Below are positions 13,775 to 44,624 of a stretch of 64,000 nucleotides of DNA, in pieces. Origin of the DNA: an uncultured Actinomycetota bacterium. GTDB taxonomy: Bacteria; Actinomycetota; Actinomycetes; Prado026. The stretch is from contig CAVQCJ010000002.1 of the NCBI GenBank assembly GCA_963711005.1, positions 475,729 to 539,728 of the forward strand, in the 5' to 3' direction. The stretch's first letter is position 1, and each line of letters begins with the position of its first letter. Both the position numbers and the translations under genes were made by a program. Below the pieces are notes generated by a model. That model saw nothing but the letters and a program-made list of their open reading frames with translations. It ran no database searches and was not told the origin of the DNA.

Positions 13775-14581
13775 CTACGACAGGTGCGCCGGTTCCCAGG
13801 GACGGAGTACGTCCAGGTCCTCGAGGTCGTAACCGTACGCAGCCGCACGCGGGCCGTAGTCCCGGACCAGCGAACGACGCAACGAGCGCCGCCACGGCCT
13901 GCGGTCCTCGGCCAGCGCGGCCCACCGGGCGGCGTACGCGTCGCTGCGGCCGGCCTGCCAGGCGGAGGCGTCCACCGGGCCGTCGAGCTCGAGGAACCGG
14001 CCGATCGCGTCGAGCTCACCCACCGGGTCGCGCACCAGCTCCTCGTACCGCACGACGTGGACCGCGCGCAGCGACGGCAGGTCCGCGAGGAACGTGTCGT
14101 GGGCGGCGAACCAGTTGGCCATCGGCGTGCGCAGGCTCCGGCCGCGCAGCCACTTGTCCGTGCCGAGCGAGACGACCACCGGGTGCCGGACGATCATCAC
14201 GAACCGCGCCTGCGGGAACAGCCCCTGCAGGAACCGGCTCATCACCAGGTTCGGCGGCGACTTCTCCACCAGCACCGGGCGGTCCAGGTCCCAGTGCGGC
14301 GACCAGGCAGCCGCGAGCCGGCGGGCGCTGTCCTGAGTGGCCAGCGGGGAGTCCTCGGTCAGGTGCGAGCGCGGGTCCAGCGCGAAGCGGCCCGCGCCGC
14401 CGTACGCCCGGGCCGGCGGGTAGACGTCCTGCAGGTGCTGGCCCTCGTCCTCGGTGGCGGACGTGCCGCTGAACCCGGCGACCTGCGGGTGGCCGGCCAG
14501 CACCCTGGTCAGCGGGGTGGTCCCGCTGCGGTGGGTCCCCCCGACGAAGACCAGGCGGTGGTCGGCGAGCGGTGCGCTCAC
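13775..14581 (-). CDS. sulfotransferase family protein (PAPS-dependent type), ST-1
   Basis: 268 aa. 5'-PSB-like loop VFVGGTHRSGTTPL near the N-terminus. 3'-PB-like IVRHPVVVS. The GTG start overlaps the upstream GH26 stop in a GTGA at 14578-14581. Confidence 0.75.
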   Translation of the reverse strand: MSAPLADHRLVFVGGTHRSGTTPLTRVLAGHPQVAGFSGTSATEDEGQHLQDVYPPARAYGGAGRFALDPRSHLTEDSPLATQDSARRLAAAWSPHWDLDRPVLVEKSPPNLVMSRFLQGLFPQARFVMIVRHPVVVSLGTDKWLRGRSLRTPMANWFAAHDTFLADLPSLRAVHVVRYEELVRDPVGELDAIGRFLELDGPVDASAWQAGRSDAYAARWAALAEDRRPWRRSLRRSLVRDYGPRAAAYGYDLEDLDVLRPWEPAHLS

Positions 14582-15606
14582 CCGCCGCCGCCCTGACCCG
14601 TGTTGAAGTACGCCTGCTTGGCCATGGCCGTGAACGCGTGCCAGGGGTCGGTCCCCGGGACCAGGCTGAAGTCGCGGTCGCGGCCGCCGTCCTGGTGCCG
14701 GGCGTCGTAGTACACGACGCCCTTCACCTGCGGGTGCGCCCTGACGAACGCAGCAGTCCCGTTCATCCAGGCCAGCCGCTGCCCGGGCTCCGCGTCCTCC
14801 GCCCCGTACTCGCCGATCAGCACCGGCTTGTCATGGCTGGCGGCCCAGGCCAGGAACTCCGCGGACACCTGCGCGAAGCTGAGGTAGTCCGGCCCCGGGT
14901 AGACGTCGGTGCACAGCCACTCGACCTGGTCGTCCCCGGGGTAGTAGGCGGGACCGCCGGTCGCCTGGAAGTCGGTGGCGATGGGGCACCACACCCAGGC
15001 CGCGTTGGTGGCGCCGACCTCGGTGAAGATCTTCCGGATGTGCTTCCACGCGGCGACGTAGTCGGCCGCGCTCCACACACTGCCGGCCAGGTTCGGGCGG
15101 TTCATCTCCCAGCGCCAGCGCAGCAGGATCGGCGCGCCCAGCGCCTTGACCTCCTCGGCCCGGGCCTTGATCTGCTCGTCGTAGCGCCCGGTCACGATCA
15201 CCCGGGTGTCGGCCCCGGACCACGACAGCAGCAGCGTGCGGCCCTGGGCGACGAAGTTCTTGTCCGCGTCGCTGGGGAAGTCGTCCTCCCACTGGTGGTA
15301 GACCTGCACGACGTCCAGCGAACGACCCAGGCTCCTCTCGAACTTCGCGACCGCGGCGACCTGGCCGCTCTGCGTCGGCACCTCGGGCTTGACCCACGCG
15401 CCGACCCACGCACCGCTGGACGGAGGCTGCGGCCCACGGGCCGGCGGCGCGGACGGCCCGCTCGCCGTCGGCACGCTCACGGTCGGCACCGGAGCCCCTG
15501 CGTCCGGGCTGGCCCCGCCGTAGGTACCGACGAGCAGCGCGTACGCGAGGCCGATCATCGCGAGCGCGGTGGCGAAGACCAGCCAGCGCCCCCGTCGGCT
15601 CAGCAC
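14578..15606 (-). CDS. membrane-anchored glycoside hydrolase, GH26-like
   Basis: N-terminal TM helix (WLVFATALAMIGLAYALLVG). GH26-type motifs LLRWRWEMN (acid/base Glu) and VLIGEYG (nucleophile Glu). The start is trimmed to GTG 15606, which has a GGAGG SD 5 nt upstream, immediately after the Wzx stop (15617). Confidence 0.7.
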   Translation of the reverse strand: MLSRRGRWLVFATALAMIGLAYALLVGTYGGASPDAGAPVPTVSVPTASGPSAPPARGPQPPSSGAWVGAWVKPEVPTQSGQVAAVAKFERSLGRSLDVVQVYHQWEDDFPSDADKNFVAQGRTLLLSWSGADTRVIVTGRYDEQIKARAEEVKALGAPILLRWRWEMNRPNLAGSVWSAADYVAAWKHIRKIFTEVGATNAAWVWCPIATDFQATGGPAYYPGDDQVEWLCTDVYPGPDYLSFAQVSAEFLAWAASHDKPVLIGEYGAEDAEPGQRLAWMNGTAAFVRAHPQVKGVVYYDARHQDGGRDRDFSLVPGTDPWHAFTAMAKQAYFNTGQGGGG

Positions 15607-15616
15607 GTCGGCCTCC

Positions 15617-17191
15617 TCATCGCGCGGCCCCGGCGTGCGCACCGCGGCGGCGCCGCTTCGTCGCCCGGACGAGCGCGTCCAGCTCGAAGACATCCTTCAG
15701 CCGCCAGGACGTGGCAGCGTACCCGGCGAAGCCCACGACGACGGCGCCGGCCAGCACCGGGCCGCTGGTCCCGAACGCCAGCCCGGTCACGAACGGCAGC
15801 ACACCGAGCCAGGAGCCGGCGACGAGCATGGCCAGAAGCGTGCCGCGGCCGAACGGGTGCAGCCGCATCGACACCGCGAGCTGGGTGAGCGGGAGGACGT
15901 TGTTGACGACGATGCCGGCGGCCCAGCCGATGGCCGCGCCGAGGATGCCCAGGTGGGTGCTCGTCAGCAGGTAGTAGCTGAGGCTGATGTTCACGACCAG
16001 AGCGATCGTGGCGTTCATGAGCGTCCACGTGGTCTTGCCGGCCATCGCCAGCACGGCGTCGACCATGCCCGACGCCGTCGCGAACAGCATCGCGCCGGCG
16101 AGCACCACGAGCACGGCCGTGCCGGAGTTGTACCCGTGCCCGAAGATCAGCGGGATCTGCCGGGAGAACACCGCGAGCAGCAGGTAGACCGGCCAGCACA
16201 GCAGCACCAGCCAGCAGGTCGACACCTGGTAGATGTGCAACGCGCCGTCGTGGTCCTCCTTGACCATGAGCGCGCCGATCTGCGGCTGCACCGCGGCGGT
16301 GATCGCCTGCGAGCCGAGCTGGCCGAAGACCAGGAAGCGGGTGACCGCCGCGTACACGGCGGCATGCGCGGGCCCGAGCACCGCCGACACCAGCACGATC
16401 CCGAGCCGCTGCAGCGCGATCTGCACGATGCTCTGCATCGCCCTCGGGGTGGTGAACCGCCAGAACTCCACCCACGGCGTCGGGGACTGGCCGCGGCCGA
16501 TCCCGGCCCGGCGCTCGGCGCGGGCCACCAGCCGGTACGTCCAGACCAGCGCGACCGTCCCGCTGGCGGCGTACGGCAGCGCCCAGGCCAGGCTGAGCCA
16601 GCCGGCCGCGAACGCGCCGACGGCCGCGCCGAGCGCGATCGCCACCAGGGTGAACACGACCTGCAGGACCGGGCGGCCCATCCGCTCCACCACGACCAGC
16701 GGCTTCATGCTGCCGAACGCGCGGGTGGCGTACAGCAGCGAGTCCGAGATGGCCGCGATCGGGATCAGCAGGGCGAGCAGCCGGATCGAGACCAGCGCCG
16801 GCTCCTGGTGCGAGCCGGCCATCCAGTGCGCGAGCGGGCTGCCGAACGCGAGCAGCAGCAGGCTCAGCAGGATCGAGCCGATGACCACCGGCACCAGACC
16901 CGCGCGCAGGATCGCCCGCAGGGTACCGACCTTGTCGAGCGTCCTGGCCCGGACCAGGAAGTACATCAGCCCGGTCGGGCAGCCCAGCCGCGCCGCGGTC
17001 TCCGCGATCAGGAACAGCGAGGTGGCGGCGAAGACCACTCCGGCGGTGACCCGCCCGGCCGCGTGGATGACGACGAGCACGAGCACGAGGTTGAGCACCG
17101 CCGAGACGCCGGCGCCCACCAGCGCCAGCAGCCCGTCGCGGGCGAGCCGGTCGATCCGCTCGCCGGAGGCCGCCGTGGTGTCGACACTCAC
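15617..17191 (-). CDS. oligosaccharide/polysaccharide flippase (MOP superfamily, Wzx-like)
   Basis: About 524 aa. Hydrophobic multi-pass protein (about 12-14 predicted helices by eye) typical of Polysacc_synt/Wzx. GTG 17191 overlaps the upstream sulfotransferase stop as GTGA. Confidence 0.7.
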   Translation of the reverse strand: MSVDTTAASGERIDRLARDGLLALVGAGVSAVLNLVLVLVVIHAAGRVTAGVVFAATSLFLIAETAARLGCPTGLMYFLVRARTLDKVGTLRAILRAGLVPVVIGSILLSLLLLAFGSPLAHWMAGSHQEPALVSIRLLALLIPIAAISDSLLYATRAFGSMKPLVVVERMGRPVLQVVFTLVAIALGAAVGAFAAGWLSLAWALPYAASGTVALVWTYRLVARAERRAGIGRGQSPTPWVEFWRFTTPRAMQSIVQIALQRLGIVLVSAVLGPAHAAVYAAVTRFLVFGQLGSQAITAAVQPQIGALMVKEDHDGALHIYQVSTCWLVLLCWPVYLLLAVFSRQIPLIFGHGYNSGTAVLVVLAGAMLFATASGMVDAVLAMAGKTTWTLMNATIALVVNISLSYYLLTSTHLGILGAAIGWAAGIVVNNVLPLTQLAVSMRLHPFGRGTLLAMLVAGSWLGVLPFVTGLAFGTSGPVLAGAVVVGFAGYAATSWRLKDVFELDALVRATKRRRRGAHAGAAR

Positions 17192-17967
17192 GCGCGCCAC
17201 CCCGGCCGGCGGCCCAGCCACGCCTCCAACCGCTCGTCGTAGGGGCGGAAGTGCTCGTCCAGCCGCGCTGCGAGCCCGGGGTCCATCGGCGACCGCGGGC
17301 GGGCGTTGTGCTGCTCGAACACGGCGCCGTCGAACTCCGGGAGCCCGAGGAAGTCCAGCACCGCGCCGTACGCGTCCGCCGGGCGCTCGAAGAACTCCTG
17401 GCTGTCCACGACGTGCACCCGGTCGCGGCCGAACAGCTCGGCGAGCCGCTCGAGCTGGTCCACGTACTGCCCGCGGGTCAGGTACGCGTTGTGCTGCAGG
17501 TGGAAGCTGTCGTACGCGGGGTCGGCCCGCATCCGCGCCGCTTCGCCGGCGATCCGCTCCGGCTCGAGCTCCAGCGCACGCTCGAACGTCTCGGTCTCGA
17601 AGCCCCGCGCCTTCTCGTGCGTGTACGCGGAGATCGCGCGCTCGACCGGGTCTCGGACCAGGACGACCAGCCGGACGCCCGGCAGGTCGGCGGCGATCCG
17701 GTCGGCCGCCAGCGGGTGGAACATGTAGTACGGGCTCGACTCGCCGGTGATCGGAACCACGCCGACGCGGCCCTCGACCCGGCCGGCGGACACCCGCAGC
17801 GGGAAGTGGCTGCGGTACCAGGCCGGCCCGCGGTCGTAGTTCTTGTCGAAGTAGTGGATGCCCTTCTGCAGCGCCGGGGCGAGCACGGCCGGGTGCTGGC
17901 GCAGCGTCTTGAACATCGATGTCGTGCCGCAGCGCTGCGCGCCGACGATGAGGAACGCCGGTCGCAT
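17188..17967 (-). CDS. sulfotransferase (Sulfotransfer_1/3-like, PAPS-dependent), ST-2
   Basis: MRPAFLIVGAQRCGTTSMF (5'-PSB) and VLVRDPVERAISAY (3'-PB). The 466-aa track ORF has a spurious Arg/Gly-rich N-terminal extension. The start is set to ATG 17967 (alternative TTG 18048), downstream of the kinase-like gene stop at 18066. Confidence 0.8.
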   Translation of the reverse strand: MRPAFLIVGAQRCGTTSMFKTLRQHPAVLAPALQKGIHYFDKNYDRGPAWYRSHFPLRVSAGRVEGRVGVVPITGESSPYYMFHPLAADRIAADLPGVRLVVLVRDPVERAISAYTHEKARGFETETFERALELEPERIAGEAARMRADPAYDSFHLQHNAYLTRGQYVDQLERLAELFGRDRVHVVDSQEFFERPADAYGAVLDFLGLPEFDGAVFEQHNARPRSPMDPGLAARLDEHFRPYDERLEAWLGRRPGWRA

Positions 17968-18065
17968 GCGCGACGACGCGGTGGCCCGCCCGGCGGCCCG
18001 GCTGGCGACCCGCGCCCCCTTCAACAGCTGCCCGCGGACCCCGGTCAACCCTGCGCCACCCACGG

Positions 18066-19319
18066 TCAGTGCTCCTTCGTCTCGGCCGCGGCGGACGCGG
18101 GTCCCCGCACCGCCCCGGGCACGCTCTCCAGGACCGGCAGCAACCAGTCCCCGAGGCGGCCGACGGCCGCGCCGGCCCCGTCCTGGTCGTCCGCCGCGTA
18201 GCGCACGCCGATCCCCCAAAGGTACGCAGCGGCCGCCAGCGGCGCGTCCTGCGCCGGGACGCCGAACGGCGCGGTCAGCCGGGCGGCGTCGGCGAGCACG
18301 CGGCGCGCGGCCCCGCCCGGGTCGACGCCGGCGGAGATCGCCGCCTGCAGGCTCAGGTGCAGGGCGTCGAAACCGGCCGGCACACCGGTCTCGTACCGTT
18401 CCCAGTCCCAGACCAGCACGGCCCCGGGGACGACCGAGCAGTTGCCGGCGTTCCAGTCGCCGTGCCAGGCGCTCGGCACGAGCACGCAGCCGGCCGCGTC
18501 GGCCACCAGCCGGTCCCGGGCCGCCGCGAGCCGGCTCGCGACGTCGCCGGGTGGCAGCGCCTCGAGCGCAGCAACCGTCCGCCCCCACCAGGGCAGGTCA
18601 ACGAGCGCGGACGGCGTCCCGGTTCCGGTGCGGGCGACCGCGACCATGGCGTCGACCAGCCGAGCCCCGCCGCCGGGGTCGGCGGCCCGGCGGACCGGCA
18701 GCGGCGCCTGCACCAGCAACGGGTGCCCCTGCCACCCGCCCGAGTGCAGCACCTCGGGCACCCGGACCTGGCCGAGCCCGGTGTCGTCGGCGAGCTGGAG
18801 CAGGGCCGCGGTCTCCGCCCGTACCAGCCGGTCGGTCAGCGGGTTAGTGCCGAGCTTGGCGTAGGCGAGCAGCTTGCCTCGCGGCGACACCACCTGCAGC
18901 ACCGGTTTGCGGTTCGCCCGGGGCGGGCCGATGCGGATCCCGAGGCGGACGTCCTGACCGAGCAGGTCGGCCAGTGCCGAGTCGAGACCGTCCCTGGCTC
19001 CTTCGACCTGGGTCACCACCAGCCGGCCGGGCAGCAGCCGGCCGGCCAGCCCGACGCGGAAGGCCAAGGCCATGGAACGGTTCCGGACCGCCGCGCGGGT
19101 CGAGCCGGCCGCCGCCTGGCCGCGCGCGACAGCGGACGCCGCGGCCCACGGCCGCAACGGGACGGCGAGCCGGGCGTCGTCGACCGAGGGCAGCAGCGCG
19201 TAGGCGGTCGAACCGGGCTCCCGCCGAGCTTCGGCGAGGTCGCGGACGGTGCCGACGCGCACCCGCGCCGGAGCCGGCCACAGCAGGGCCGCCGCGTCGG
19301 CGAGGGACCCGCCGCTCAC
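18066..19319 (-). CDS. phosphotransferase-family (APH/choline-kinase-like) protein
   Basis: 417 aa. Brenner-type catalytic motif HGDWNAGN followed by VWDWE (metal-binding Asp). GTG 19319 overlaps the Wzy-like stop as GTGA (19316-19319). The rest of the 862-aa track ORF is a shadow extension. Confidence 0.6.
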   Translation of the reverse strand: MSGGSLADAAALLWPAPARVRVGTVRDLAEARREPGSTAYALLPSVDDARLAVPLRPWAAASAVARGQAAAGSTRAAVRNRSMALAFRVGLAGRLLPGRLVVTQVEGARDGLDSALADLLGQDVRLGIRIGPPRANRKPVLQVVSPRGKLLAYAKLGTNPLTDRLVRAETAALLQLADDTGLGQVRVPEVLHSGGWQGHPLLVQAPLPVRRAADPGGGARLVDAMVAVARTGTGTPSALVDLPWWGRTVAALEALPPGDVASRLAAARDRLVADAAGCVLVPSAWHGDWNAGNCSVVPGAVLVWDWERYETGVPAGFDALHLSLQAAISAGVDPGGAARRVLADAARLTAPFGVPAQDAPLAAAAYLWGIGVRYAADDQDGAGAAVGRLGDWLLPVLESVPGAVRGPASAAAETKEH

Positions 19320-20746
19320 CGGTCGCCACCGGCGAACAGCCGTGGCCCGCCCTCCCGCAAGACGGCGAGGTCGGCCGCGCGCTGCTCGCGCCTGGCCTGG
19401 TCGTTGCGCCACAGCAGCGCCATGCCCATCAACGTGATGGCCAGCGGCGACACGACCGAGGTGTAGAAGAGCGAGTAGAAGATGCCCAGCAGCAGGACCA
19501 GCGTGCCGCCGATCCCCACCACGGAATGGTCGCGCCAGTAGCGGATGACGCCCTGGAAGAGGAACAGCAGGTAGAGGATCGCGCCCGGGTAGCCCTGGGC
19601 CACCAGGAGCAGCCACAGCTGCCCGGTACTGCCGATCACGCGGTTGCCGCAGCGCGGGCAGCCGGGGCTCTGCCCGATCGTGGCCGACTTGTCGCTGCCG
19701 ATCGTCGACCGGGTGCTGCCGTAGCCGATCGGCGACGTCGCGGCGACCTTCAGCGACTCCAGCGACAGTGACCCGCGGACCTCGTTGCTGTGCGGCGTCG
19801 CGATCCGCGCCGTCACCACGTCCTGGAGCGGGGAGAGCACGACGGCGGCGCCGACGAGCCCGGCCGCAACCCCGAGCCCGAGCAGGATCGCGTAGCGGTG
19901 CTGCAGGGCCAGTCGCAGGGCGACGTACATTGCGCCCAGCACCAGGCCCAGCCACATGCCGCGGTTCTGCGAGTACACGACCGGTACGACCGACACCGCG
20001 AGCACGACGAGCGCGACCACCCGGCGCCGGTCGGAGGCGTACAGCAGCCAGCCGATGACGAACCAGACAAGCAGCATCGAGTAGTTGTTGCCCCAGGCGT
20101 TCGCGTACTCGAACGGCGCGCTGGGCCGCGGGTAGCCCAGGACCGTCTGGACCTGCGCGCTCTCGATGTGCGTGAACTGCTGGACGAAGTCGATGCTCTG
20201 CAGGCTGGCGGGCAGGATGGCCTTGATCGGCGAGTCGTACCCGAAGTGCGGCGCGAACGTGCCGAGCAGCCCGCCGACGACGGTGACGACGAACACCACG
20301 CCCAGCCAGCGGATCAGCCGCAGCCGGGGCAGCTCGCGCTCGGTCAGGTTGCCGGTGTAGATCATCACCAGCGTGACGGACAGGTAGTTGAGCAGCCGGA
20401 TCGCGTACGCGATGTAGTGGCCGGGTCCGCCGTTCACCGGCAGCGTGTCCGGCGCCTGGACGTCGACCATCAGGCCGCTGATGACCACCAGCGACAGGAA
20501 CAGCGCCCACACCCAGAACATCGGCGGCAGCTTGATCGGGCGCCGCCTGGACAGCTGGAAGACCATCGGGATCGCGAAGAGCGTCCACACCAGCGGGGCG
20601 ATCCCCAGCGCCCACCACAGCGGGTAGCCGAGCAGCAGCGCAGCCAGCGGCCACGCGGTCGGCAGCCGGCGCGCCGGCGCTGCGTGCGCCCCCGCGCGGG
20701 TCCCGGTGGTCCGCGGCCGGTGCCGGTCCAGCCCGACCGCGGTCAC
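19316..20746 (-). CDS. O-antigen polymerase/ligase-like (Wzy_C-type) integral membrane protein
   Basis: About 476 aa. Many hydrophobic helices with one large loop. Its position within a Wzx/PCP cluster supports the call. GTG 20746 overlaps the DUF3048 gene stop as GTGA (20743-20746). Confidence 0.6.
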   Translation of the reverse strand: MTAVGLDRHRPRTTGTRAGAHAAPARRLPTAWPLAALLLGYPLWWALGIAPLVWTLFAIPMVFQLSRRRPIKLPPMFWVWALFLSLVVISGLMVDVQAPDTLPVNGGPGHYIAYAIRLLNYLSVTLVMIYTGNLTERELPRLRLIRWLGVVFVVTVVGGLLGTFAPHFGYDSPIKAILPASLQSIDFVQQFTHIESAQVQTVLGYPRPSAPFEYANAWGNNYSMLLVWFVIGWLLYASDRRRVVALVVLAVSVVPVVYSQNRGMWLGLVLGAMYVALRLALQHRYAILLGLGVAAGLVGAAVVLSPLQDVVTARIATPHSNEVRGSLSLESLKVAATSPIGYGSTRSTIGSDKSATIGQSPGCPRCGNRVIGSTGQLWLLLVAQGYPGAILYLLFLFQGVIRYWRDHSVVGIGGTLVLLLGIFYSLFYTSVVSPLAITLMGMALLWRNDQARREQRAADLAVLREGGPRLFAGGDR

Positions 20747-21759
20747 GACGCCGTCACCTTGGTGCCCCTGGGCACGAGCAGCACCCAGGTCCGCCCCGGC
20801 TGCAGCCCGATCGGCTGCGGGCCGGCGGTGTACACGGTCACCACACCCGGGAACCGCCGGGTCCACACGACGCTCGCGCCGTGCCGCCCGGCGTAGACGT
20901 CGGCCGGGCCGGTGCCGACCGTGTCGGCGCTGCCGACGGCCGGCGACTTGTGCGGGGTGAACGTCTTGTACGGCACGAACTGCACGACGATGTTGGTCAC
21001 GAGGCTGCCGGCCGGTCCGGCCCAGGCCTTGCCGGTCCAGGTCCAGGACATCGACGCCTGCCCGGGCACCGAGACGACGATGTGCGACAGCGACTTCGCA
21101 CCCGTCGGCGCGGGTGCCGACGCCGAGGCGAAGGTCAGTGCTCCACCCATCGGCGGGGCCGCGCCACGCACGCTGGCCCGCAACGCGGTGGTCGACACGA
21201 CCAGGCCACCACTGCCGGTACGGAACAACGACCGGTACGAGCCCGCCGCGTCACGCGCGGTCACTGCAGGCGCCTTGGCCTGCGAGACGAACCCGGACGG
21301 GCCGCCGTCGAAGGCGTAGGCGGGCGAGGTGAACAGGGTCAGCAGCCGCGGGTCGTCCGGCGCGGTGGCCGTGACCGGCCCGACCGACCCGGTGTCCGCC
21401 GACTGGTAGACCGCCAGCAGCCGCACGTGACCTGGACGGTCGAACTCCGCGTACACGACGTCCGCTGCCCCGAGCCCGCTGACCGAGCGCCCGGGCACCA
21501 TCTGGACCACGACCGCGACGGCGCTCCGGCTCAGTGCCGCGGCGGTCGCGACGGGCACGCCAGTGAACGGGGCGTAGCCGGCCGGGGCCACCGTGCTGGA
21601 CGGGCTCGTCGACGCGGTGGCCGACGGCGAGGTGGACACGGACGACGCGACCGTGGGGAGCGTGGACGGCAGGGCGTCCGAGCCGCCGCATCCGGCCAGG
21701 CCGAGCAGCGCGGCGGCGCCGGCGGCACCCGCCACCACCCTGGTGCTCTTGCGTCCCAT
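20743..21759 (-). CDS. DUF3048-like lipoprotein
   Basis: Signal peptide plus lipobox MGRKSTRVVAGAAGAAALLGLAGC, then a Ser/Thr/Pro linker. DUF3048-like core APFTG.P......SR.AVAVV....P.RS.SGL..ADVVYAE........RLLAVYQS. An alternative GTG start at 21786 lies 1 nt after the PCP stop. Confidence 0.55.
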   Translation of the reverse strand: MGRKSTRVVAGAAGAAALLGLAGCGGSDALPSTLPTVASSVSTSPSATASTSPSSTVAPAGYAPFTGVPVATAAALSRSAVAVVVQMVPGRSVSGLGAADVVYAEFDRPGHVRLLAVYQSADTGSVGPVTATAPDDPRLLTLFTSPAYAFDGGPSGFVSQAKAPAVTARDAAGSYRSLFRTGSGGLVVSTTALRASVRGAAPPMGGALTFASASAPAPTGAKSLSHIVVSVPGQASMSWTWTGKAWAGPAGSLVTNIVVQFVPYKTFTPHKSPAVGSADTVGTGPADVYAGRHGASVVWTRRFPGVVTVYTAGPQPIGLQPGRTWVLLVPRGTKVTAS

Positions 21760-21787
21760 GACGTCGCGCCGCCCCCAGCCGGTCACG

Positions 21788-23356
21788 TCAGGGCCGCGAC
21801 GGCATGACCGTCTCGGCCGCAGCGCGCTCGGTCACGTCACCCGCGGTCAGCTTCGCTGGCGCGGGCACGGTAGGGACCACCACGGCCCCCAGGACCAGCG
21901 CGCCGGACTGCTCGAGCTCTTCGAACGCGTGCCGCACGAGCGGCAGTTTGCTCGTGCCGAGCTCGACCACGACGAGGGCCGAACCCGCCCAGCGGGCCAG
22001 CTCCTGGGCGTCGGTGCCCTGCTGGACCTCGGGCGCCTCGATGATGACGCGGTGACCGTCCTTGACCAGCTGGTCGACGAGGGCCGCCACCTTCTGCAGC
22101 GGGACCCGGTCGAACACGTCGGCGAGGTCACGGCCCGGCACCACCACCCGCAGCCGTGGACGGCCGGGGACCGCCTGCGCGAGCTCCTCGAGCGGACGTT
22201 CCTCGAGCAGTGCCGAGCTGAGGCCCGGGCCTTCGGCGAGGCCGAACATGGTCGCGACGGCGGAGTCGGGATTGGCACTGAGCAGGACGACCTCGGCGCC
22301 GGAGCGGGCCATCGACAGCCCCAGGTTGCCCGCGACGAACGCCGTGCCGTGGCCGTCCTGCGCCCCGGTCACCACGACCGAGCTGGCCCGGTCCGGCGTG
22401 GCCGAGTCGAGACGCAGCCGGAGCCGGTCGAACTCGCCACTTCCGGTGCGCGCGGTGAGCACGCCGCCGACCACCTTGCCGCGGGCCGGCTTCGGGATCG
22501 AGGCGATGACCGGACGCCCGGCCCGCTGCTCGACGTCCTCGGGACGGCGGACGCGCTTGTCCATCCGGGCCGCGAGCACCGCGAGCGCGAGACCCAGCAG
22601 CAGTCCGGCGAACATGCCGGTGCCCACGTACAGCCCGGGGATCGGCTTGGACGGGCTCGTCGGGATTGACGCGTCCTGGATGATCTCGCCGGCCGTCGGG
22701 TCGATCGTGGACAGCGGGGTGAGCCGACTGGTGACGTCGGCCACGCTGGTCTTCAGGATGTCGAGCTCGGTGAGCGCGAACTGGTGCGCGGTCGACGACG
22801 GCGCGGTCGCCGCGACCTGGCCGGCGTACTTGGCCACTGAGGCGTAGAGCCCATTCCGCTGCGTGTTCAGCACCTCGGACAGCACCGCGATCTGGGCCTT
22901 GGCCTGGTCGGTGCGGTAGTTGAGGTACGCCAGCGCGAAAGCGTGCGAGCCGGCTACTGCCTTCTCCGGCGTGCTGGCCGAGAACGAGACGTCGATGACC
23001 GAGGTGTTCGCCGGTACGGTGGCCGTGAGCTGACGCTCGAGGACGTCCGTCTCGGTGTCGACCCGCAGCAGGGCCTTCGCCGCGTCGCCGACCTTGTCGC
23101 TGGTGATGATCTGCAGCTCGTTGTCCATGTTGACGCTGGAGTTCGTCCGAGCGCCGGTCACCGAGGTCTGGTCCGGCGGTGCGAGGACCTTCACCGTCGT
23201 GGTCGAGGTGTACTGCTTCTGGATCAGGGTCACGGCAGCCGAGCCGGCCACCAGCCCCAACAGGCCTCCGAGCAGCACAAGCCACCAGAAGCGGCGGATC
23301 CGACCGATCGAGCGGACCGAGTCGCCGCCCCCGATGTCCCTAGCCAGTGCGTCCAT
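21788..23356 (-). CDS. polysaccharide co-polymerase (Wzz/PCP-2b-like) with a degenerate C-terminal BY-kinase/P-loop domain
   Basis: N-terminal Wzz region (RRFWWLVLLGGLLGLVAGSAAV...YTSTTTV) and a second TM helix (YVGTGMFAGLLLGLALAVLAA). The C-terminal MinD/BY-kinase-like fold has a Walker A-equivalent VTGAQDGHGTA with no Lys. No C-terminal Tyr cluster is present. Start at ATG 23356. Confidence 0.75.
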   Translation of the reverse strand: MDALARDIGGGDSVRSIGRIRRFWWLVLLGGLLGLVAGSAAVTLIQKQYTSTTTVKVLAPPDQTSVTGARTNSSVNMDNELQIITSDKVGDAAKALLRVDTETDVLERQLTATVPANTSVIDVSFSASTPEKAVAGSHAFALAYLNYRTDQAKAQIAVLSEVLNTQRNGLYASVAKYAGQVAATAPSSTAHQFALTELDILKTSVADVTSRLTPLSTIDPTAGEIIQDASIPTSPSKPIPGLYVGTGMFAGLLLGLALAVLAARMDKRVRRPEDVEQRAGRPVIASIPKPARGKVVGGVLTARTGSGEFDRLRLRLDSATPDRASSVVVTGAQDGHGTAFVAGNLGLSMARSGAEVVLLSANPDSAVATMFGLAEGPGLSSALLEERPLEELAQAVPGRPRLRVVVPGRDLADVFDRVPLQKVAALVDQLVKDGHRVIIEAPEVQQGTDAQELARWAGSALVVVELGTSKLPLVRHAFEELEQSGALVLGAVVVPTVPAPAKLTAGDVTERAAAETVMPSRP

Positions 23357-23665
23357 GCGCGCGCGCCTCACAGGTGTAAGAGCTGAAAGTGGACGAAACC
23401 CCCTGGGCCCGCCCCCGGTCCCCGGTAGTGAGGATATCTGTCGCGAGAGCGTACGGAATGGTCGCGCACAGTGACGTCCTCTCAACGGTCGGTGCATGTC
23501 CTCCGAACGGTCAGGGTCCCGTGGTCCACACGGTCACAACGACCGCCAGAACGTCCGGATCGACCGGGCACCGCTTCCCTCCGGTTGTCACCGTGCGTAG
23601 CGTTCGGTGTCGCGGCGAGCGCAGGTCGGGGAGGACCTCGCAGCCGAGGGGTTAGGGACGGTTGC
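23357..23665. promoter_or_regulatory. divergent promoter region between the PCP operon (-) and the Alg14/Alg13-ST/GT2 operon (+), containing three phased ACGGTC repeats
   Basis: 309-bp non-coding gap with locally lower GC. ACGGTC occurs at 23485-23490, 23507-23512 and 23530-23535, spaced 22 and 23 bp apart. Confidence 0.35.
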
Positions 23666-24310
23666 ATGTCTGACACTGAGTCCGTCGCGTCGGCGGCGTC
23701 GGTCACCGGGCTGCGCGAGCCGGGGGTCGAGCCGGAGCTGGTGATCGACCTGACCGAAGCGGGCCGCGCCCGCGCCGGAGCCGGTGTCCGCGCTGCCCGC
23801 GAGCTGTCGGTCGACCGCCTCGAGGTCGTCACCGAGCCGAGCGCGCCGCGGCGGCTGCCCGGAACCGCGATGCTGGTCGGGTCCAGCGGCGGCCACCTGG
23901 CACAGCTGCAGACCGTCGCCCCGCTGTGGGACGCCGACCACCGCTCGTACGTCACCTTCGACACCGAGGACGCCTTGTCGTTGCTCGTGGGCGAGCGCGT
24001 GACCTGGGCGCACCACCCGACCACCCGCAACGTCCGCAACCTCGTGCGCAACAGCGTGCTCGCGGTCCGCGAGCTGCGCCGGAACCGGCCCGACGTCGTG
24101 GTCTCCACCGGCGCCGCCGTCGCGTTCCCGTTCTTCCTCGCCGCGAGGGCCATGCGCATCCCGACCGTGTACGTCGAGGTCTACGACCGGATCGACAGCC
24201 CGACGCTGACGGGCCGGCTGTGCCGCCCGCTCACCAGCCTCTTCTGCGTCCAGTGGCCCGAGCAGACCGCGTTCTACAAGCGGTCCGAGCTCGTCGGGAG
24301 CCTCATGTGA
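23666..24310 (+). CDS. Alg14-like glycosyltransferase membrane/acceptor subunit (PssD/Cps14F-like)
   Basis: Core MLVGSSGGHLAQL...VVSTGAAVAFPFFLAARAMRIPTVYVEVYDRI. High GC3 from ATG 23666 onward. A shorter start at ATG 23870 is possible. The stop overlaps the next start (ATGTGA at 24305-24310). Confidence 0.75.
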   Translation: MSDTESVASAASVTGLREPGVEPELVIDLTEAGRARAGAGVRAARELSVDRLEVVTEPSAPRRLPGTAMLVGSSGGHLAQLQTVAPLWDADHRSYVTFDTEDALSLLVGERVTWAHHPTTRNVRNLVRNSVLAVRELRRNRPDVVVSTGAAVAFPFFLAARAMRIPTVYVEVYDRIDSPTLTGRLCRPLTSLFCVQWPEQTAFYKRSELVGSLM

Positions 24311-25800
24311 CACCGGCGGACCACGCACCGGCGCAGACCGACGAGCCACCCCTGGTGCTGGTCGCGGTCGGCACCGACTACCACCCGTTCGACCGGCTGG
24401 TCGGCTGGGTCGACAGCTGGCTGGCCGACTCCGGGCCGCGGCGCGCAGAGGTGCTCGTGCAGCACGGCCGCTCGTCCGCGCCGGCCGTGGCGCAGGGACG
24501 CCCGTTGCTGGACCACGACGATCTGCAGGACGCGATGGGCCGGGCTGCCGCGGTGGTCTGCCACGGCGGCCCCGCGACCATCATGGAGGCCCGGCGCAAC
24601 GGCCGGCTGCCGATCTGCGTGCCGCGGGACCCGAAGCGGGGCGAGCACGTCGACCAGCACCAGCAGGACTTCGCCCGACGGATGGGGGCCGAGGACGTCG
24701 TCCGGCTGGCCGAGACCGAGGAGCAGTTCCGCGCTGCGCTCGACGAGGCGTTGGACTTCCCCGACCGGTTCGCGCTCGGCGTCGAGTCCGGCTCTGTGGC
24801 CGCGCCCGGCCTGGATCGGTTCGCCGATCTGGTCGGTGAGCTGCTGCCGCCGGTGACCCCGGACGTGCGGGTGCCGGTGCTGTACATCGGCGGTCTCGGC
24901 CGCAGCGGCTCCACCCTGCTCGAGCGGTGCATCGGCCAGGTCGAGCAGGTGGCCTGCGTCGGCGAGGTGGTGCACCTGTGGGAGCGCGGCCTGCGCGACG
25001 ACGAGCTGTGCGGCTGCCGCGACCGGTTCTCCGTGTGCACGTTCTGGCAGCGCGTGGGCAAGAGCGCGTACGGCGGGTGGGACAAGGTCGACGTCGGCGA
25101 GGTGCTGGCACTGAAGGCATCCGTGGACCGCACCAGGTACGCACCCCGGCTGCTGCGGGCACCGGTGGACGGCAGGTTCGGCCGGCAGCTGCGCCGGTAC
25201 GCCGACCTGCTGACCCGGCTGTACGCAGCCGTGCTCGACGTCTCCGGCGCGGAGGTGGTCGTCGACGCGAGCAAGCACGCGTCGACCGCGCTGGTGCTCC
25301 GCGCGGCGCCCGGCATCGACCTCAAGGTGCTGCACGTCGTCCGGGACAGCCCCGCGGTCGCATACGCCTGGACCAAGCAGATCGCCCGACCGGAGGCCGG
25401 ACCCGGCGAGTACATGGCCAGCTGGTCACCGCTGCAGACGACCATGCACTGGACCACGGCCAACGTGCTGCTCGACCGGTCCGCCCGAGCGGGCACCCCG
25501 ACCCGGCTCGTCCGCTACGAGGACTTCGTCCGCGACCCGCGCGCCACCCTCGCCGGCATCCTCGACTTCATCGGCCAGGACTCCGGTTCCGACTCGCTGG
25601 GATTCCTGGACGGGCGGCACCTCACACTGACCCCGTCGCACACGGTGGCCGGCAACCCGATGCGCTTCACCAACGGCAGCCTCGAGGTGGTCGAGGACGA
25701 CGCCTGGCACGAGGCGTTCCCGAGCAGCAGGCGCCGCATGGTCTCCACCCTGACCCGGCCGCTGCGCGGACGCTACGGCTACACCGGGGAGCCCCGTTGA
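24307..25800 (+). CDS. fusion protein: Alg13-like (Glyco_tran_28_C) glycosyltransferase catalytic subunit + C-terminal sulfotransferase domain (ST-3)
   Basis: N-terminal LVLVAVGTDYHPFDRL...VVCHGGPATIMEARRNGRLPICVPRDP..GEHVDQHQ is Alg13/MurG-C-like. After a linker of about 45 aa comes VLYIGGLGRSGSTLLE (5'-PSB) ...LHVVRDSPAVAY (3'-PB) ...LVRYEDFVRDP. One uninterrupted frame runs from GTG 24307. Confidence 0.75.
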   Translation: MTPADHAPAQTDEPPLVLVAVGTDYHPFDRLVGWVDSWLADSGPRRAEVLVQHGRSSAPAVAQGRPLLDHDDLQDAMGRAAAVVCHGGPATIMEARRNGRLPICVPRDPKRGEHVDQHQQDFARRMGAEDVVRLAETEEQFRAALDEALDFPDRFALGVESGSVAAPGLDRFADLVGELLPPVTPDVRVPVLYIGGLGRSGSTLLERCIGQVEQVACVGEVVHLWERGLRDDELCGCRDRFSVCTFWQRVGKSAYGGWDKVDVGEVLALKASVDRTRYAPRLLRAPVDGRFGRQLRRYADLLTRLYAAVLDVSGAEVVVDASKHASTALVLRAAPGIDLKVLHVVRDSPAVAYAWTKQIARPEAGPGEYMASWSPLQTTMHWTTANVLLDRSARAGTPTRLVRYEDFVRDPRATLAGILDFIGQDSGSDSLGFLDGRHLTLTPSHTVAGNPMRFTNGSLEVVEDDAWHEAFPSSRRRMVSTLTRPLRGRYGYTGEPR

Positions 25801-26768
25801 CCGAGCAGGCCACGAAGCGAGACGAGTCGGCCGACCGGACCGTCGTCCTCGCGGACGGCTACCCCGAGGTGGACGTCGTCGTCCCGACGCGGGACCGGCC
25901 CGAGCTGCTGCGGCTGACCATCGACTCGATCCTCGCGCAGGACTACCCCGGCGTGGTGCGGGTGGTCGTCGTCTTCGACCAGTCCGACCCCGACCTCACG
26001 CTGGTGCGCCCCGACCCGATGCGCCCGGTGCTCGTGGTCACGAACAACCGCAAGCCCGGGCTGGCCGGCGGCCGCAACAGCGGGATCCTCGCGTCGCGCG
26101 GCGAGCTCGTGGCCTTCTGCGACGACGACGACGTCTGGCTGCCGGGCAAGCTCTCGGCCCAGGTCACACTGCTCAAGTCCGACCCCGCCGCGTCCGTGGT
26201 CTCGTGCGGCATCCGGATCGACTACGACGGCACGCTGGTTGACCGGGTGCTGCCGCAGACGACGGTCCAGCTTCGGGACCTGCTCCGCGACCGGCTCACC
26301 GAGCTGCACCCCTCGACCTTCCTGATGCGCAGGGCCGCTGTGGTCGACGGTTTCGGGCTCGTCGACGAGGCAGTGCCTGGGTCGTTCGGCGAGGACTACG
26401 AGTTCCTGCTGCGCGGGGCGCGGACCGGTCCGGTCCGCACCGTCCCCGAGGTCGGCGTCGTGGTCCGGTGGCACAAGCAGTCGTACTTCACCAGCCGCTG
26501 GGACACGATGGCGCAAGGCCTGACGTGGCTGCTCGAGCGGTACCCCGAGTTCTCCTCGGTGCCGGCCGGTGAGGCCCGGGTGGCCGGGCAGGTCGCCTTC
26601 GCGCGCGCCGCCCAGGGTGAGCGCCGCGAAGCCCTGCACTGGGTGGGCCGAACGGTCCGCCGCAACCCGTTGGAGCCGCGGGCTTACCTCGCGCTCGCGG
26701 TCGCCTCGGGCGCGGTCAAGCCCGACGCGATCATCCGACGCCTGCACGACCGCGGCCGCGGGATCTGA
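25797..26768 (+). CDS. family 2 glycosyltransferase
   Basis: VDVVVPTRDRPELLRLTIDSILAQ, NSGILASRGELVAFCDDDDVW (DxD). The TTG start overlaps the upstream stop (TTGA at 25797-25800). A later GTG start is possible. Confidence 0.85.
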   Translation: MTEQATKRDESADRTVVLADGYPEVDVVVPTRDRPELLRLTIDSILAQDYPGVVRVVVVFDQSDPDLTLVRPDPMRPVLVVTNNRKPGLAGGRNSGILASRGELVAFCDDDDVWLPGKLSAQVTLLKSDPAASVVSCGIRIDYDGTLVDRVLPQTTVQLRDLLRDRLTELHPSTFLMRRAAVVDGFGLVDEAVPGSFGEDYEFLLRGARTGPVRTVPEVGVVVRWHKQSYFTSRWDTMAQGLTWLLERYPEFSSVPAGEARVAGQVAFARAAQGERREALHWVGRTVRRNPLEPRAYLALAVASGAVKPDAIIRRLHDRGRGI

Positions 26769-26812: not shown

Positions 26813-28258
26813 TCAGTCGTCGGCGGGTAGTCCGACGGTGTAGCGGTGGCCGGTGGGCATGGTCCAGACGAACCGTCCGGGTGTGGGTTGGCGCAGGTCA
26901 ACGGCCTTGTTCTGCTTGAACCTGTGGTGGCGTCGGCATGGCGGGCTGAGGTTGGCCGGGTGGGTGGGTCCGGTCGGCCAGGCGATGGTGTGGTCGACGT
27001 CGTTGCGGCGCGCGCCCTGGCCGCAGGACGGGTGCGGACAGGTTCGGTCCCTGGCGATGATGTGCCGTGTCAACGCGGCTGAGGGCCGGTAGCGCGGTTC
27101 GGCGGGCCAGTCGGCGGCCACGGCTGCAGCCTGGTGGGCGGTGACCGGCTGGTGGACGCGCACGACTGGGTACCGGCTGCTCGCGAGGGCCCGAGCACTG
27201 ACCTGGCGTCCCAAAGCTGTAGTGACGGGTCCGTACCCGGCCAGGTCGGGGACCGCCGCCGGGTCGTGAGCATCGACGGTCAGGTCCAAGGCCGGGGCCT
27301 GGCCGTGCGCGACCGCCAACGCCAGGGGGCCGTCGGGCGTGCTGAGCTGGCCGGTGGCCAGGGCGGCCCAGAACGGGGCCGCCAACGCCGCGGCCCGCAA
27401 CTGGCCCTTGGAGCGGGTCTCCCCGTCCCGGCCGGCCATCGACACGGCGGCGGCGTCCAGCGCCAACCGGACCGCCACGGCGTCTTCAGCGGTCATGTGC
27501 GCGTCCAGCCAGGCGGTGTCGGTCAGGGCCGGGCTGATCCGCACCCACTGGTCCGAACGGGCCCTTGCGGCCCGCTCGGCAGCGCCCTGGGCATCGATCC
27601 GCAGGACGGCGCGGCGCACTGCCTGCCGAAACCGCCCCGTGGTGGCGCGCCCACCACGCTCGAGGACGGCCTCTTCTATCGCTGCGGCCTGTTCTGGTCC
27701 GCAGTCGCCGGCGTCTTCGAGCACAGCGTTCATCCGCGGGTAGTCGATCCGCCCCCCGGCGAGTGCCGCCAGCGTGGCCGGGAACCGGCCGACCAGTGCG
27801 ACCGCGGTGGCGACCCGGTCCTCCCCACCACGCACCGTCAACCCCAGGGCAGGGCCGATCTCGTCGCCACCACCGAAGTCCCGTGCCACCTGTCCCAGGG
27901 GACGACGCATGGTCCGGGCGACGGCCGGGTCCGGTGGTGGGTAGATCACCGGGCGGCGCACGAACTCCGCGACCGCCGCGTAGTGCCGGGCCTGGGTCCA
28001 GGCAGTCAAGCGGCTCCAGGCCACCGCGACGTCCAGCACCTGCGCGTCGTGGTCCAGGTCGGCAACGTCAAGACTCTGCAGGACGGTTGCCAGAGCGACC
28101 GCCGGGACGGTGCCGTCCGCGCACCGCGGCAACGAGTCCAAGCCCGGCAAGAACACCAGACCCGACAAGTCCACACCGCTAGCGGCCGTGGTGGGCTCGC
28201 CGGCATCGGGGGTGGAGGAGTTCGAACGCATGTACCAAGTCTGCCACCTGGCTCCCAC
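26813..28258 (-). CDS. HNH endonuclease with N-terminal DUF222 domain (REP13E12-like family)
   Basis: 481 aa. C-terminal HNH region CPHPSCGQGARRNDVDHTIAW....HPANLSPPCRRHHRFK. The long Ala-rich DUF222-like N-terminus is typical of multi-copy actinobacterial HNH genes. Confidence 0.85.
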   Translation of the reverse strand: MGARWQTWYMRSNSSTPDAGEPTTAASGVDLSGLVFLPGLDSLPRCADGTVPAVALATVLQSLDVADLDHDAQVLDVAVAWSRLTAWTQARHYAAVAEFVRRPVIYPPPDPAVARTMRRPLGQVARDFGGGDEIGPALGLTVRGGEDRVATAVALVGRFPATLAALAGGRIDYPRMNAVLEDAGDCGPEQAAAIEEAVLERGGRATTGRFRQAVRRAVLRIDAQGAAERAARARSDQWVRISPALTDTAWLDAHMTAEDAVAVRLALDAAAVSMAGRDGETRSKGQLRAAALAAPFWAALATGQLSTPDGPLALAVAHGQAPALDLTVDAHDPAAVPDLAGYGPVTTALGRQVSARALASSRYPVVRVHQPVTAHQAAAVAADWPAEPRYRPSAALTRHIIARDRTCPHPSCGQGARRNDVDHTIAWPTGPTHPANLSPPCRRHHRFKQNKAVDLRQPTPGRFVWTMPTGHRYTVGLPADD

Positions 28259-37049: not shown

Positions 37050-37353
37050 GATGTTGTCTCCCGAGGGGTTTGCGAGCCGGTGAGGGGGCCGGTCTGCGAA
37101 CGCTTCCCCCCTGGGATCGGCCCGGTGGCAGACCTCCTTGACCGGGCCGTGACCTTGCCAGAACAGGCCTAAAGGTCATGAATCAGCACAAATCGGGCAC
37201 CGCACCCGTTGGGGGTCTGGGACACCAGTTCGGGGGGTTCACTCGATCGGGTCAGCACCGACGGACTTACCGGGGCCAGGACTGTAACCGAGCGTGCCCG
37301 GAGGTCGCTCCCTGCTGTCGAGAACTGTGGATAACCCTGTGGAGATCGCTCGG

Positions 37354-39818: not shown

Positions 39819-39838
39819 CGGTTCCGCGGGTACGGCGT

Positions 39839-42794: not shown

Positions 42795-42877
42795 CCTAAG
42801 AACCTCGGTGACGCTGCGTGATCGCACCGGGGCGACGACCATCGGATTCGTTGTTCCGGGCATCTGCGACCGCCGGC

Positions 42878-44380: not shown

Positions 44381-44624
44381 GTGTAGATCTCCCGCCCCTG
44401 TGCGCACCACCCGTCCGGAGCCGACGAAGCCCGCCGCCCCGGCCGGGTGATCCGGCGAGTCTAGGGAGGCGGTTCGTGCCGGTTAAAGGCCAAGCGGCGC
44501 GAATCGTCCGAACGTAGGACCTGTTCGACCGTTCGTCTCACGCAAGCGTGTGCACCCGTCACTCAACGTGTCGAGGCGATGTCCCGGAGTTCGCTCCTTC
44601 AACCTCCTGAGGAGCCGCCCGGGC

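Follow-up and report, generated by a model that had tools for sequence, protein, structure and literature searches.

Within a 64,000-nucleotide stretch of DNA from an uncultured Actinomycetota bacterium (NCBI GenBank assembly GCA_963711005.1, contig CAVQCJ010000002.1, positions 475,729 to 539,728; hereafter the window), a single open reading frame joins an Alg13-like glycosyltransferase subunit to a complete sulfotransferase domain. The join between the two domains is confirmed to be genuine, not an artefact of assembly, and the architecture is common in Actinomycetota. Our verdict is that the fusion is an undescribed but common variant of known enzyme parts and not a new kind of system. The protein is likely to be a bifunctional cytoplasmic enzyme of a Wzx/Wzy pathway, combining transfer of the second sugar with sulfation of the lipid-linked repeat unit. 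The gene, its parts and its upstream partner are as follows (window coordinates).

Positions 24307 to 25800, plus strand: fusion open reading frame of 497 aa, comprising an Alg13/PssE-like donor half, a linker and a sulfotransferase (Pfam, conservation of the architecture, AlphaFold2).
Positions 24352 to 24771, plus strand: Glyco_tran_28_C domain, residues about 16–155 (Pfam, NCBIfam, alignments, Foldseek).
Positions 24772 to 24870, plus strand: inter-domain segment, residues about 156–188, which includes helix 167–177 (GLDRFADLVGEL) (predicted local distance difference test, pLDDT; alignment).
Positions 24871 to 25797, plus strand: sulfotransferase domain, residues about 189–497 (Pfam PF13469, invariant columns, PDB, Foldseek).
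Positions 23666 to 24310, plus strand: Alg14/PssD-like protein, the acceptor-side half of a split GT-B glycosyltransferase (match to Alg14 in Pfam, E 7.3e-11).

The frame runs from GTG 24307 to TGA 25798–25800 and encodes 497 residues with no internal stop. Its start and the stop of the Alg14-like gene (TGA, 24308–24310) share 4 nt (GTGA, 24307–24310), and its own TGA overlaps the TTG start of a family 2 glycosyltransferase (GT2) gene on the 3′ side, also by 4 nt (TTGA, 25797–25800), implying that the Alg14-like gene, the fusion and the GT2 gene form a translationally coupled unit. An earlier reading of the DNA without database searches (the original prediction) had proposed just such an uninterrupted frame, beginning at GTG 24307 and overlapping the Alg14-like stop, and had assigned to it an Alg13-like half and a sulfotransferase domain. 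Both proposals hold, and the sulfotransferase has all its cofactor motifs. Each domain scores above its Pfam cut-off, with Glyco_tran_28_C (PF04101) at residues 17–153 (E 1.5e-13; 51.5 bits, cut-off 22) and Sulfotransfer_3 (PF13469) at residues 190–423 (E 5.8e-13; 50 bits, cut-off 27), and the three motifs quoted at the time (GGLGRSGSTLLE, HVVRDSP and RYEDFVRDP) are all found in the fusion. The G+C content at the three codon positions is 0.75/0.50/0.94, with the same pattern in the glycosyltransferase part, the linker and the sulfotransferase part. This is consistent with a single coding frame, and the pattern is lacking in the long antisense open reading frames of this 73% G+C DNA.

Besides the window's own protein, a search of 5.8 billion proteins yielded 120 clusters, drawn from NCBI, ENA, JGI and Logan assemblies, with 45–86% identity and lengths of 432–526 aa. 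PF04101 is present in all 120 and PF13469 in nearly all, so that the co-occurrence of Glyco_tran_28_C and sulfotransferase domains, which the original prediction had left to database searching, is now established. In the databases these homologues are annotated merely as ‘sulfotransferase’, ‘glycosyltransferase’ or ‘ALG13’. The architecture had not been recognised from any characterised system, and full-text literature searching likewise found neither a published description of such a glycosyltransferase–sulfotransferase fusion nor a characterised example; it is nevertheless common, given the 120 clusters and its presence in cultured strains.

Related loci were collected by a scan with one genome per species, in which the best 80 of 547 loci were taken; 84 loci entered the scoring of fused and split forms. 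The loci taken come from, among others, five species of Catellatospora, a complete genome of Angustibacter, Ornithinimicrobium cavernae, Actinotalea, Nocardioidaceae, Nanopelagicales and many metagenome-assembled genomes (MAGs) of Acidimicrobiia; the fused architecture is documented in cultured Catellatospora, Angustibacter and Ornithinimicrobium and also in Acidimicrobiia MAGs. Fifty of the 84 loci were scored as fused, that is, in the same frame, with no stop and with linkers of differing length, and at least three more proved to be fused on inspection (L029, L038 and L053, the last with a slightly early stop). Inspection also revealed that in some MAGs a stand-alone paralogue from the same sulfotransferase subfamily comes directly after the fused gene (L029, 11464–12399; L038, about 11476–12387; L096).

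Could a sequencing or assembly frameshift have joined separate Alg13-like and sulfotransferase genes? The source assembly is of metagenome type, in 7 contigs and 89% complete, the split-adjacent versions of the locus differ from the fused ones solely by the frame at the junction, and some long-read MAG loci (L051 and L055) do have frame problems. Against this, an independent MAG (L005), 96% identical, covers fusion residues 1–497, and the pattern of codon-position G+C is unbroken across the junction. One frame is also held through varied linkers in L001 (86% identity), in L002 (79%) and in dozens more, isolates among them. With the fusion kept in independent assemblies that include isolate genomes, an artefact is no longer a reasonable explanation, and we regard it as extremely improbable.

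The glycosyltransferase domain is well conserved. Alignments of 24 and 103 homologues give the near-invariant motifs GTD.H.F.R, HGGPAT..E.RR and PR(D)..GEH.D.HQ..F, and H86, G87, G88, P89, T91, E113, D116, H118 and Q119 are invariant in all 103 sequences. We take H-G-G-x-x-T...E and HQ to be nucleotide-sugar-binding motifs, as in MurG and Alg13. The fusion was modelled with AlphaFold2 from the 103-sequence alignment (mean pLDDT 91.6; predicted template modelling score, pTM, 0.71), the only low-confidence parts being residues 1–3 and the stretch around 160–180. When the glycosyltransferase domain of this model was compared with the PDB by Foldseek, it matched the nucleotide-sugar-binding C-terminal halves of GT-B enzymes.

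The missing acceptor half would be supplied by the Alg14-like protein, the gene for which adjoins the Alg13-like part in all related loci. NCBIfam models point to the same pairing: the Alg14-like protein matches PssD/Cps14F (E 2.6e-29; 102.5 bits, below the cut-off of 110), and the N-terminal domain of the fusion matches the C-terminal half of WelK (E 1.8e-21; 76.6 bits, below the cut-off of 400) and PssE (E 7.4e-15; 55.2 bits, below the cut-off of 120). On the single-chain WelK model, positions 3–154 align to the Alg14-like protein and positions 164–306 to the N-terminal domain of the fusion. WelK and PssD/PssE are second-sugar transferases acting on lipid-PP-glucose. Assignment of the sugar from these equivalog models was rejected, all the PssD, PssE and WelK scores lying below their cut-offs.

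The start of the Alg14-like gene is uncertain, since ATG 23666 is preceded by a purine-rich stretch and the frame is also open from GTG 23471. Its homologues have 159–219 aa. The N-terminus in the window (23666–23870) is an acidic, low-complexity extension of about 70 aa that is missing from the 159-aa homologue of L003 and from the Micromonospora homologues. The original prediction saw in this protein a membrane anchor, and here it was mistaken. Kyte–Doolittle hydropathy predicts no transmembrane segment and no hydrophobic N-terminus in the Alg14-like protein, the best 19-residue window (1.67) lying in the Rossmann core, so that the protein is not a membrane anchor in the sense of yeast Alg14. 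The fusion protein likewise has no transmembrane segment by hydropathy, and any membrane association of the pair would be peripheral.

The sulfotransferase domain is equally complete. Its 5′-phosphosulfate loop is GGLGRSGSTL (195–204) and its 3′-phosphate motif is VVRDSPAVAYAW (344–355), and further motifs comprise E220, D320/S322/K323, RYED (403–406) and HTVAGNPMRF (445–454). Among the 103 homologues G195, G196, G198, R199, S200, G201, T203, E220, D320, S322, K323, R346, Y404 and E405 are invariant, and conservation reaches at least 90% at D347, S348, R403 and D406. With its cofactor motifs intact across homologues, the sulfotransferase is not degenerate. The fold extends in the model to about residue 489, which makes the domain, first put at about 290 aa, complete as described but nearer 300 aa long. 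A set of four residues, H223, C235, C237 and C244 (window 24973–25038; HLW.R....E.CGCG..F..C.FW), is invariant in the same 103 homologues and lies on a segment, residues 223–244, that forms a short hairpin in the model. This cluster, which is not known as a feature of tyrosylprotein sulfotransferase (TPST) or CurM sulfotransferases, may be a zinc or structural site.

What this domain sulfates is less readily seen from its fold. Its top structural matches in the PDB are the TPST enzyme TPST2 (3ap3; E 3.7e-7, TM-score on target 0.60), CurM (4gbm), 4gox and Stf9 (2z6v), and a sequence-only PDB search gives the olefin-synthase sulfotransferase 4gox (E 2.7e-5). The acceptor might then lie off the repeat unit, as a protein tyrosine, a lipid or a nucleotide sugar, with the Alg13 domain serving mainly to dock the sulfotransferase; the functional diversity of Sulfotransfer_3, which is very great, would allow this. 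The gene, however, always lies between glycosyltransferase genes in Wzx/Wzy loci, in two classes of Actinomycetota, and no candidate gene for a peptide substrate is conserved beside it. The invariant glycosyltransferase motifs, moreover, speak against a domain retained for docking. We therefore give an acceptor of this kind little credence and favour the lipid-linked repeat unit.

Between the two domains the block means of pLDDT drop to 54–68, and on the 3′ side of helix 167–177 the linker varies among homologues in both sequence and length (24-sequence alignment). The split forms of the locus help to define it. In Micromonospora, all loci have the Alg13-like and sulfotransferase parts adjacent but in different frames, with the TGA of the Alg13 gene overlapped by the GTG or ATG start of the sulfotransferase gene (GTGA or ATGA), as in ...CGGTGAAC... 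(L062) and ...GGATGAGC... (L083). The split Alg13 gene retains the equivalent of helix 167–177 and ends just after it. The helix thus stays with the Alg13 gene, and the truly free linker must be nearer 10–20 aa. A linker does exist, as first proposed, but the length then given (about 45 aa) was wrong: the part that is poorly ordered in the model covers only residues about 156–188 and contains the helix.

The question of whether orthologues are fused or split, raised with the original prediction, has the answer that both forms exist, fused in the 50 scored loci and split in Micromonospora. In a maximum-likelihood tree of the sulfotransferase domain the 24 split Micromonospora sequences make up one clade (SH-aLRT, the Shimodaira–Hasegawa-like approximate likelihood ratio test, 99) that arises from within the fused sequences, with a fused gene from a MAG as its sister and the fused Catellatospora genes branching next outside. 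This nesting implies secondary fission. In an even sample of 401 Actinomycetota genomes, 88 of which have a relative, a full-length fused match occurs in only 4 genomes besides the window's own; in about a dozen the two parts lie side by side but in different frames, and most have only stand-alone sulfotransferase paralogues. When the sampled sequences join the tree a second split clade appears, in another family, and well-supported branches force at least three changes between the fused and split-adjacent states, for which reason a single origin of the fusion was rejected. Stand-alone paralogues form clades of their own on the tree, and Micromonospora loci carry an extra one within 10 kb. The order Alg14-like, Alg13-like, sulfotransferase, GT2 is constant in fused and split forms alike, implying that the conserved trait is gene order; the fusion is a frequent but reversible state of it.

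These findings bear on a further possibility, that the DNA is fused but the functions are separate, with the sulfotransferase made mainly or also from an internal start, or released by cleavage of the linker, so that the fusion brings about no more than co-expression. In-frame GTG codons do occur at residues 183–191, the sulfotransferase is an independent, translationally coupled gene in Micromonospora and in the second split lineage, the state has changed repeatedly, and stand-alone paralogues are far commoner than fusions. The internal GTG codons, on the other hand, have no Shine–Dalgarno-like sequence upstream, and the frame is maintained through linkers of variable length in many divergent lineages, implying selection for a single polypeptide. 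Separate products are accordingly unlikely, in our view, and we prefer a single bifunctional chain.

A published cluster offers a template for the rest of the locus. The wps-1 cluster of Actinoplanes missouriensis (wpsA–K; Appl Environ Microbiol 2026, PMC13390465) encodes, in order, a GT2, a sulfotransferase, a family 26 glycosyltransferase (GT26), a DUF4262 protein, a GH26 protein, a methyltransferase, Wzx, a sulfotransferase, a kinase-like protein, Wzy and Wzz. It is predicted to make a sulfated exopolysaccharide, although its authors point out that experimental proof of the sulfation is still to come (PMC13390465). Every gene except wpsD is needed for normal sporangium formation and most deletions disturb the sporangium matrix, while the mutant in wpsB, a sulfotransferase gene, looks normal but releases about 10-fold fewer spores (PMC13390465).

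Our comparison with wps-1 uses the published gene description and the sequences of L105, a locus from Micromonosporaceae (G450:C1:751500-771400) with exactly the wps-1 gene content and order, in place of the A. missouriensis Wps sequences themselves. At the WpsB position L105 has a stand-alone sulfotransferase of 311 aa that is 50% identical to the window's sulfotransferase domain over its full length, which places the fused sulfotransferase in the WpsB type; it too keeps the H223/C235/C237/C244 set. It lies between a divergently oriented GT26 gene (Pfam WecG, E 1.5e-51) and a GT2 gene. In L105 the GT26 thus takes the place that the Alg14/Alg13 pair has in the window, implying that the second-sugar transferase has been exchanged while the sulfotransferase–GT2 pair has stayed. 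The characterised members of the GT26 family, WecG and TagA, are likewise second-sugar transferases. Close relatives of the fused sulfotransferase are present in 64 of the 101 sampled genomes of the Micromonospora family, that of L105 among them.

The remaining genes of the polysaccharide locus in the window are these.

Positions 25797 to 26768, plus strand: GT2 glycosyltransferase, its TTG start overlapping the fusion stop (Pfam Glycos_transf_2, E 1.1e-22).
Positions 21788 to 23497, minus strand: polysaccharide co-polymerase (PCP) with a Wzz N-terminal part and a BY-kinase-like C-terminal part (Pfam Wzz; TIGR01006, TIGR01005, TIGR01007).
Positions 20743 to 21786, minus strand: DUF3048 protein (Pfam).
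Positions 19316 to 20866, minus strand: Wzy-like polymerase, a multi-pass membrane protein (weak Pfam Wzy_C match, hydropathy, conservation in related loci).
Positions 18066 to 19319, minus strand: conserved protein at the position of the kinase-like WpsI (no Pfam or NCBIfam match; position and conservation only).
Positions 17188 to 18099, minus strand: second sulfotransferase, of the Sulfotransfer_1 type and in the position of WpsH (Pfam PF00685, E 1.3e-15).
Positions 15617 to 17221, minus strand: Wzx-type flippase of the MatE/Polysacc_synt superfamily (Pfam MatE, hydropathy).
Positions 14578 to 15693, minus strand: weakly GH26-like protein in the position of WpsE (match to Pfam GH26 under the cut-off, E 0.0019).
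Positions 13775 to 14581, minus strand: third sulfotransferase, Sulfotransfer_3, of a different subfamily (Pfam, E 5.6e-26).
Positions 38346 to 44410, minus strand: operon for the supply of 3′-phosphoadenosine-5′-phosphosulfate (PAPS) and for priming (Pfam, NCBIfam).
Positions 38346 to 39818, 39839 to 41092, 41092 to about 42030 and 42024 to 42863, minus strand: CysC, CysN, CysD and CysQ, respectively (Pfam).
Positions 42878 to 44410, minus strand: priming polyprenyl glycosyl-phosphate transferase (TIGR03025, 423.8 bits against a cut-off of 295.55).

The GT2 gene is the constant 3′ neighbour of the fused-type sulfotransferase in all the cluster types seen, and the PCP gene diverges from the operon that begins with the Alg14-like gene. 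The true start of the second sulfotransferase probably lies inside its open reading frame (17188–18099), and the L105 homologue of the weakly GH26-like protein scores above the Pfam cut-off. That the three sulfotransferases encoded in the window are paralogues of one another was considered and rejected: the fused one resembles the second and the third only at the level of motifs, and we assign them to three subfamilies. Hydropathy gives clear transmembrane segments in Wzx, Wzy, the PCP and the priming transferase. The genes for CysC, CysN, CysD, CysQ and the priming transferase lie 13–20 kb from the fusion, and CysC is the sole match to adenosine 5′-phosphosulfate (APS) kinase in the 3.9-Mb genome. 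PAPS should thus be available to the sulfotransferase through the APS kinase, CysD, CysN and CysQ predicted in the window. The whole gene set travels together from Micromonosporaceae to Acidimicrobiia (tblastn against the 84 related loci).

Some features around these genes deserve mention. Beyond a DUF222 gene (26813–28258, minus strand) lies a stretch with a reduced G+C content (65–70%, against about 73% elsewhere). This stretch parts the glycan genes from the CysC/N/D/Q and priming operon, two blocks that are closer together in related loci. Next to the PAPS genes is a gene for a CBM_4_9 and GH26 protein (35514–37049, minus strand), the second GH26-related protein of the locus. Enzymes of family GH26 are mostly beta-mannanases, and the two GH26-related proteins may be a clue to the polymer backbone. 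The locus is flanked by a 1527-aa protein with malectin and PKD domains (8952–13535, minus strand), which may bind or process the polymer; similar proteins lie by the cluster in many of the related loci, L003 and the Catellatospora loci being examples. Between the CBM/GH26 gene and cysC, a 419-aa open reading frame (37169–38428, minus strand) has no Pfam or NCBIfam match, and its frame or start is possibly wrong; in L002 a TauE-family permease occupies the homologous position.

Taken together, these genes suggest a pathway in which the fusion would act twice. The polyprenyl glycosyl-phosphate transferase (42878–44410) would prime the lipid carrier to give lipid-PP-hexose. The Alg14-like acceptor half and the Alg13-like nucleotide-sugar half would then form one GT-B enzyme and add the second sugar, with helix 167–177 probably packing against the Alg14-like half, like the C-terminal helix in GT-B enzymes. 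The sulfotransferase domain, which begins some 10 residues past this helix, could next sulfate the same lipid-linked oligosaccharide in the cytoplasm, drawing its PAPS from the products of the nearby CysDN and CysC genes. The GT2 encoded next would extend the repeat unit, after which Wzx would flip it and Wzy and the PCP would polymerise it. In this scheme we infer in which order the reactions take place, what the acceptor and the transferred sugar are, what the helix does and that the product is sulfated at all; the order is suggested by the place of the sulfotransferase gene between the second-sugar glycosyltransferase and the GT2 in both cluster types, and by the fusion itself. Fusion gives a 1:1 stoichiometry and proximity, yet it is not obligatory.

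Several observations weigh against this function for the fusion. The sulfotransferase is separate in Micromonospora, and in wps-1-type clusters it accompanies another glycosyltransferase family, implying that tight coupling to Alg13 is not required. The mutual orientation of the two domains is weakly predicted (the pTM of 0.71 given above) and no interface between them is supported. The closest structural relatives of the sulfotransferase act on tyrosines (TPST) or on the hydroxyls of acyl chains on acyl carrier protein (CurM), not on sugars. Both glycosyltransferase halves fall under their equivalog cut-offs, so that the transferred sugar is not assignable, and the lower-G+C insertion between 26.8 and 35.5 kb interrupts the cluster. 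Finally, sulfate is chemically undemonstrated in any actinomycete polysaccharide from such loci (PMC13390465). The physical coupling of sugar transfer and sulfation put forward in the original prediction is therefore plausible, but it is something that we infer, and the separate sulfotransferase of Micromonospora tells against its necessity. A more specific arrangement is a ‘glycosylate, then sulfate’ module, in which the Alg13 helix would tether the sulfotransferase beside the Alg14-like half so that the lipid-linked disaccharide is sulfated before its release; we hold this to be conceivable but somewhat doubtful.

If such a module does operate, many Actinomycetota would make a heavily sulfated, glycosaminoglycan-like surface polysaccharide, among them the culturable Catellatospora, Micromonospora, Angustibacter and Ornithinimicrobium, as well as Acidimicrobiia. 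To our knowledge, sulfated polysaccharides are hardly known in bacteria beyond cyanobacteria and a few marine bacteria, and we know of no chemical demonstration of a glycosaminoglycan-like sulfated polymer in Actinomycetota. An actinomycete sulfated polysaccharide was predicted from genes alone in the 2026 paper on wps-1, the sole such paper that we found (PMC13390465). The fusion ties the WpsB-type sulfotransferase subfamily to the second-sugar step, and so suggests when and where sulfation happens. The Alg14-like protein and the fusion together make a compact two-protein system that could be reconstituted in vitro, and, with fused and split forms both present in cultured genera, the effect of fusion is directly testable. 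A possible use lies in making defined sulfated oligosaccharides with enzymes or microbes.

How does this locus compare with known systems? Like wps-1, it has a PCP, Wzy, a gene at the WpsI position, a Sulfotransfer_1-type sulfotransferase, Wzx, a GH26-like protein, a second sulfotransferase and a GT2. In wps-1-type clusters, unlike the window, the sulfotransferase is free-standing and its neighbour is a GT26 (WecG/TagA family) instead of an Alg14/Alg13 pair; the GT26 (WpsC), DUF4262 (WpsD) and methyltransferase (WpsF) were not found among the scanned genes of the window's locus. The synechan (xss) system of Synechocystis PCC 6803 is similar in being of Wzx/Wzy type with dedicated, presumably cytoplasmic sulfotransferases (PMC8205485), but it belongs to a different phylum and its gene clusters are unrelated (eLife 2021, PMC8205485). 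No sulfotransferase–glycosyltransferase fusion is mentioned in the wps-1 paper (PMC13390465) or in the synechan paper (PMC8205485).

At the level of the enzymes, the sulfotransferase domain shares with the PAPS-dependent TPST, CurM and Stf sulfotransferases (3ap3, 4gbm, 4gox and 2z6v) the same fold, the 5′-phosphosulfate and 3′-phosphate motifs and, following the P-loop, an acidic residue. It differs from them in that identity is merely 14–21%, in the class of acceptor, and in the H/C/C/C cluster and HTVAGNPMRF motif, which are specific to the family of the fused sulfotransferase.

The glycosyltransferase side has its counterparts in the split GT-B pairs PssD/PssE of Rhizobium leguminosarum, Cps14F/Cps14G of Streptococcus pneumoniae type 14 and Alg14/Alg13 of yeast, of which WelK/GelK is the single-chain equivalent. 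As in these pairs, the Alg14-like and Alg13-like genes are adjacent and the donor-binding motifs are conserved, and the setting is a lipid-linked repeat-unit pathway with a priming enzyme of the hexose-1-phosphate type. In contrast to yeast Alg14, however, the Alg14-like half in the window has no transmembrane anchor, and, in contrast to all of these pairs, it is here the Alg13-like half that bears a C-terminal sulfotransferase of about 310 aa.

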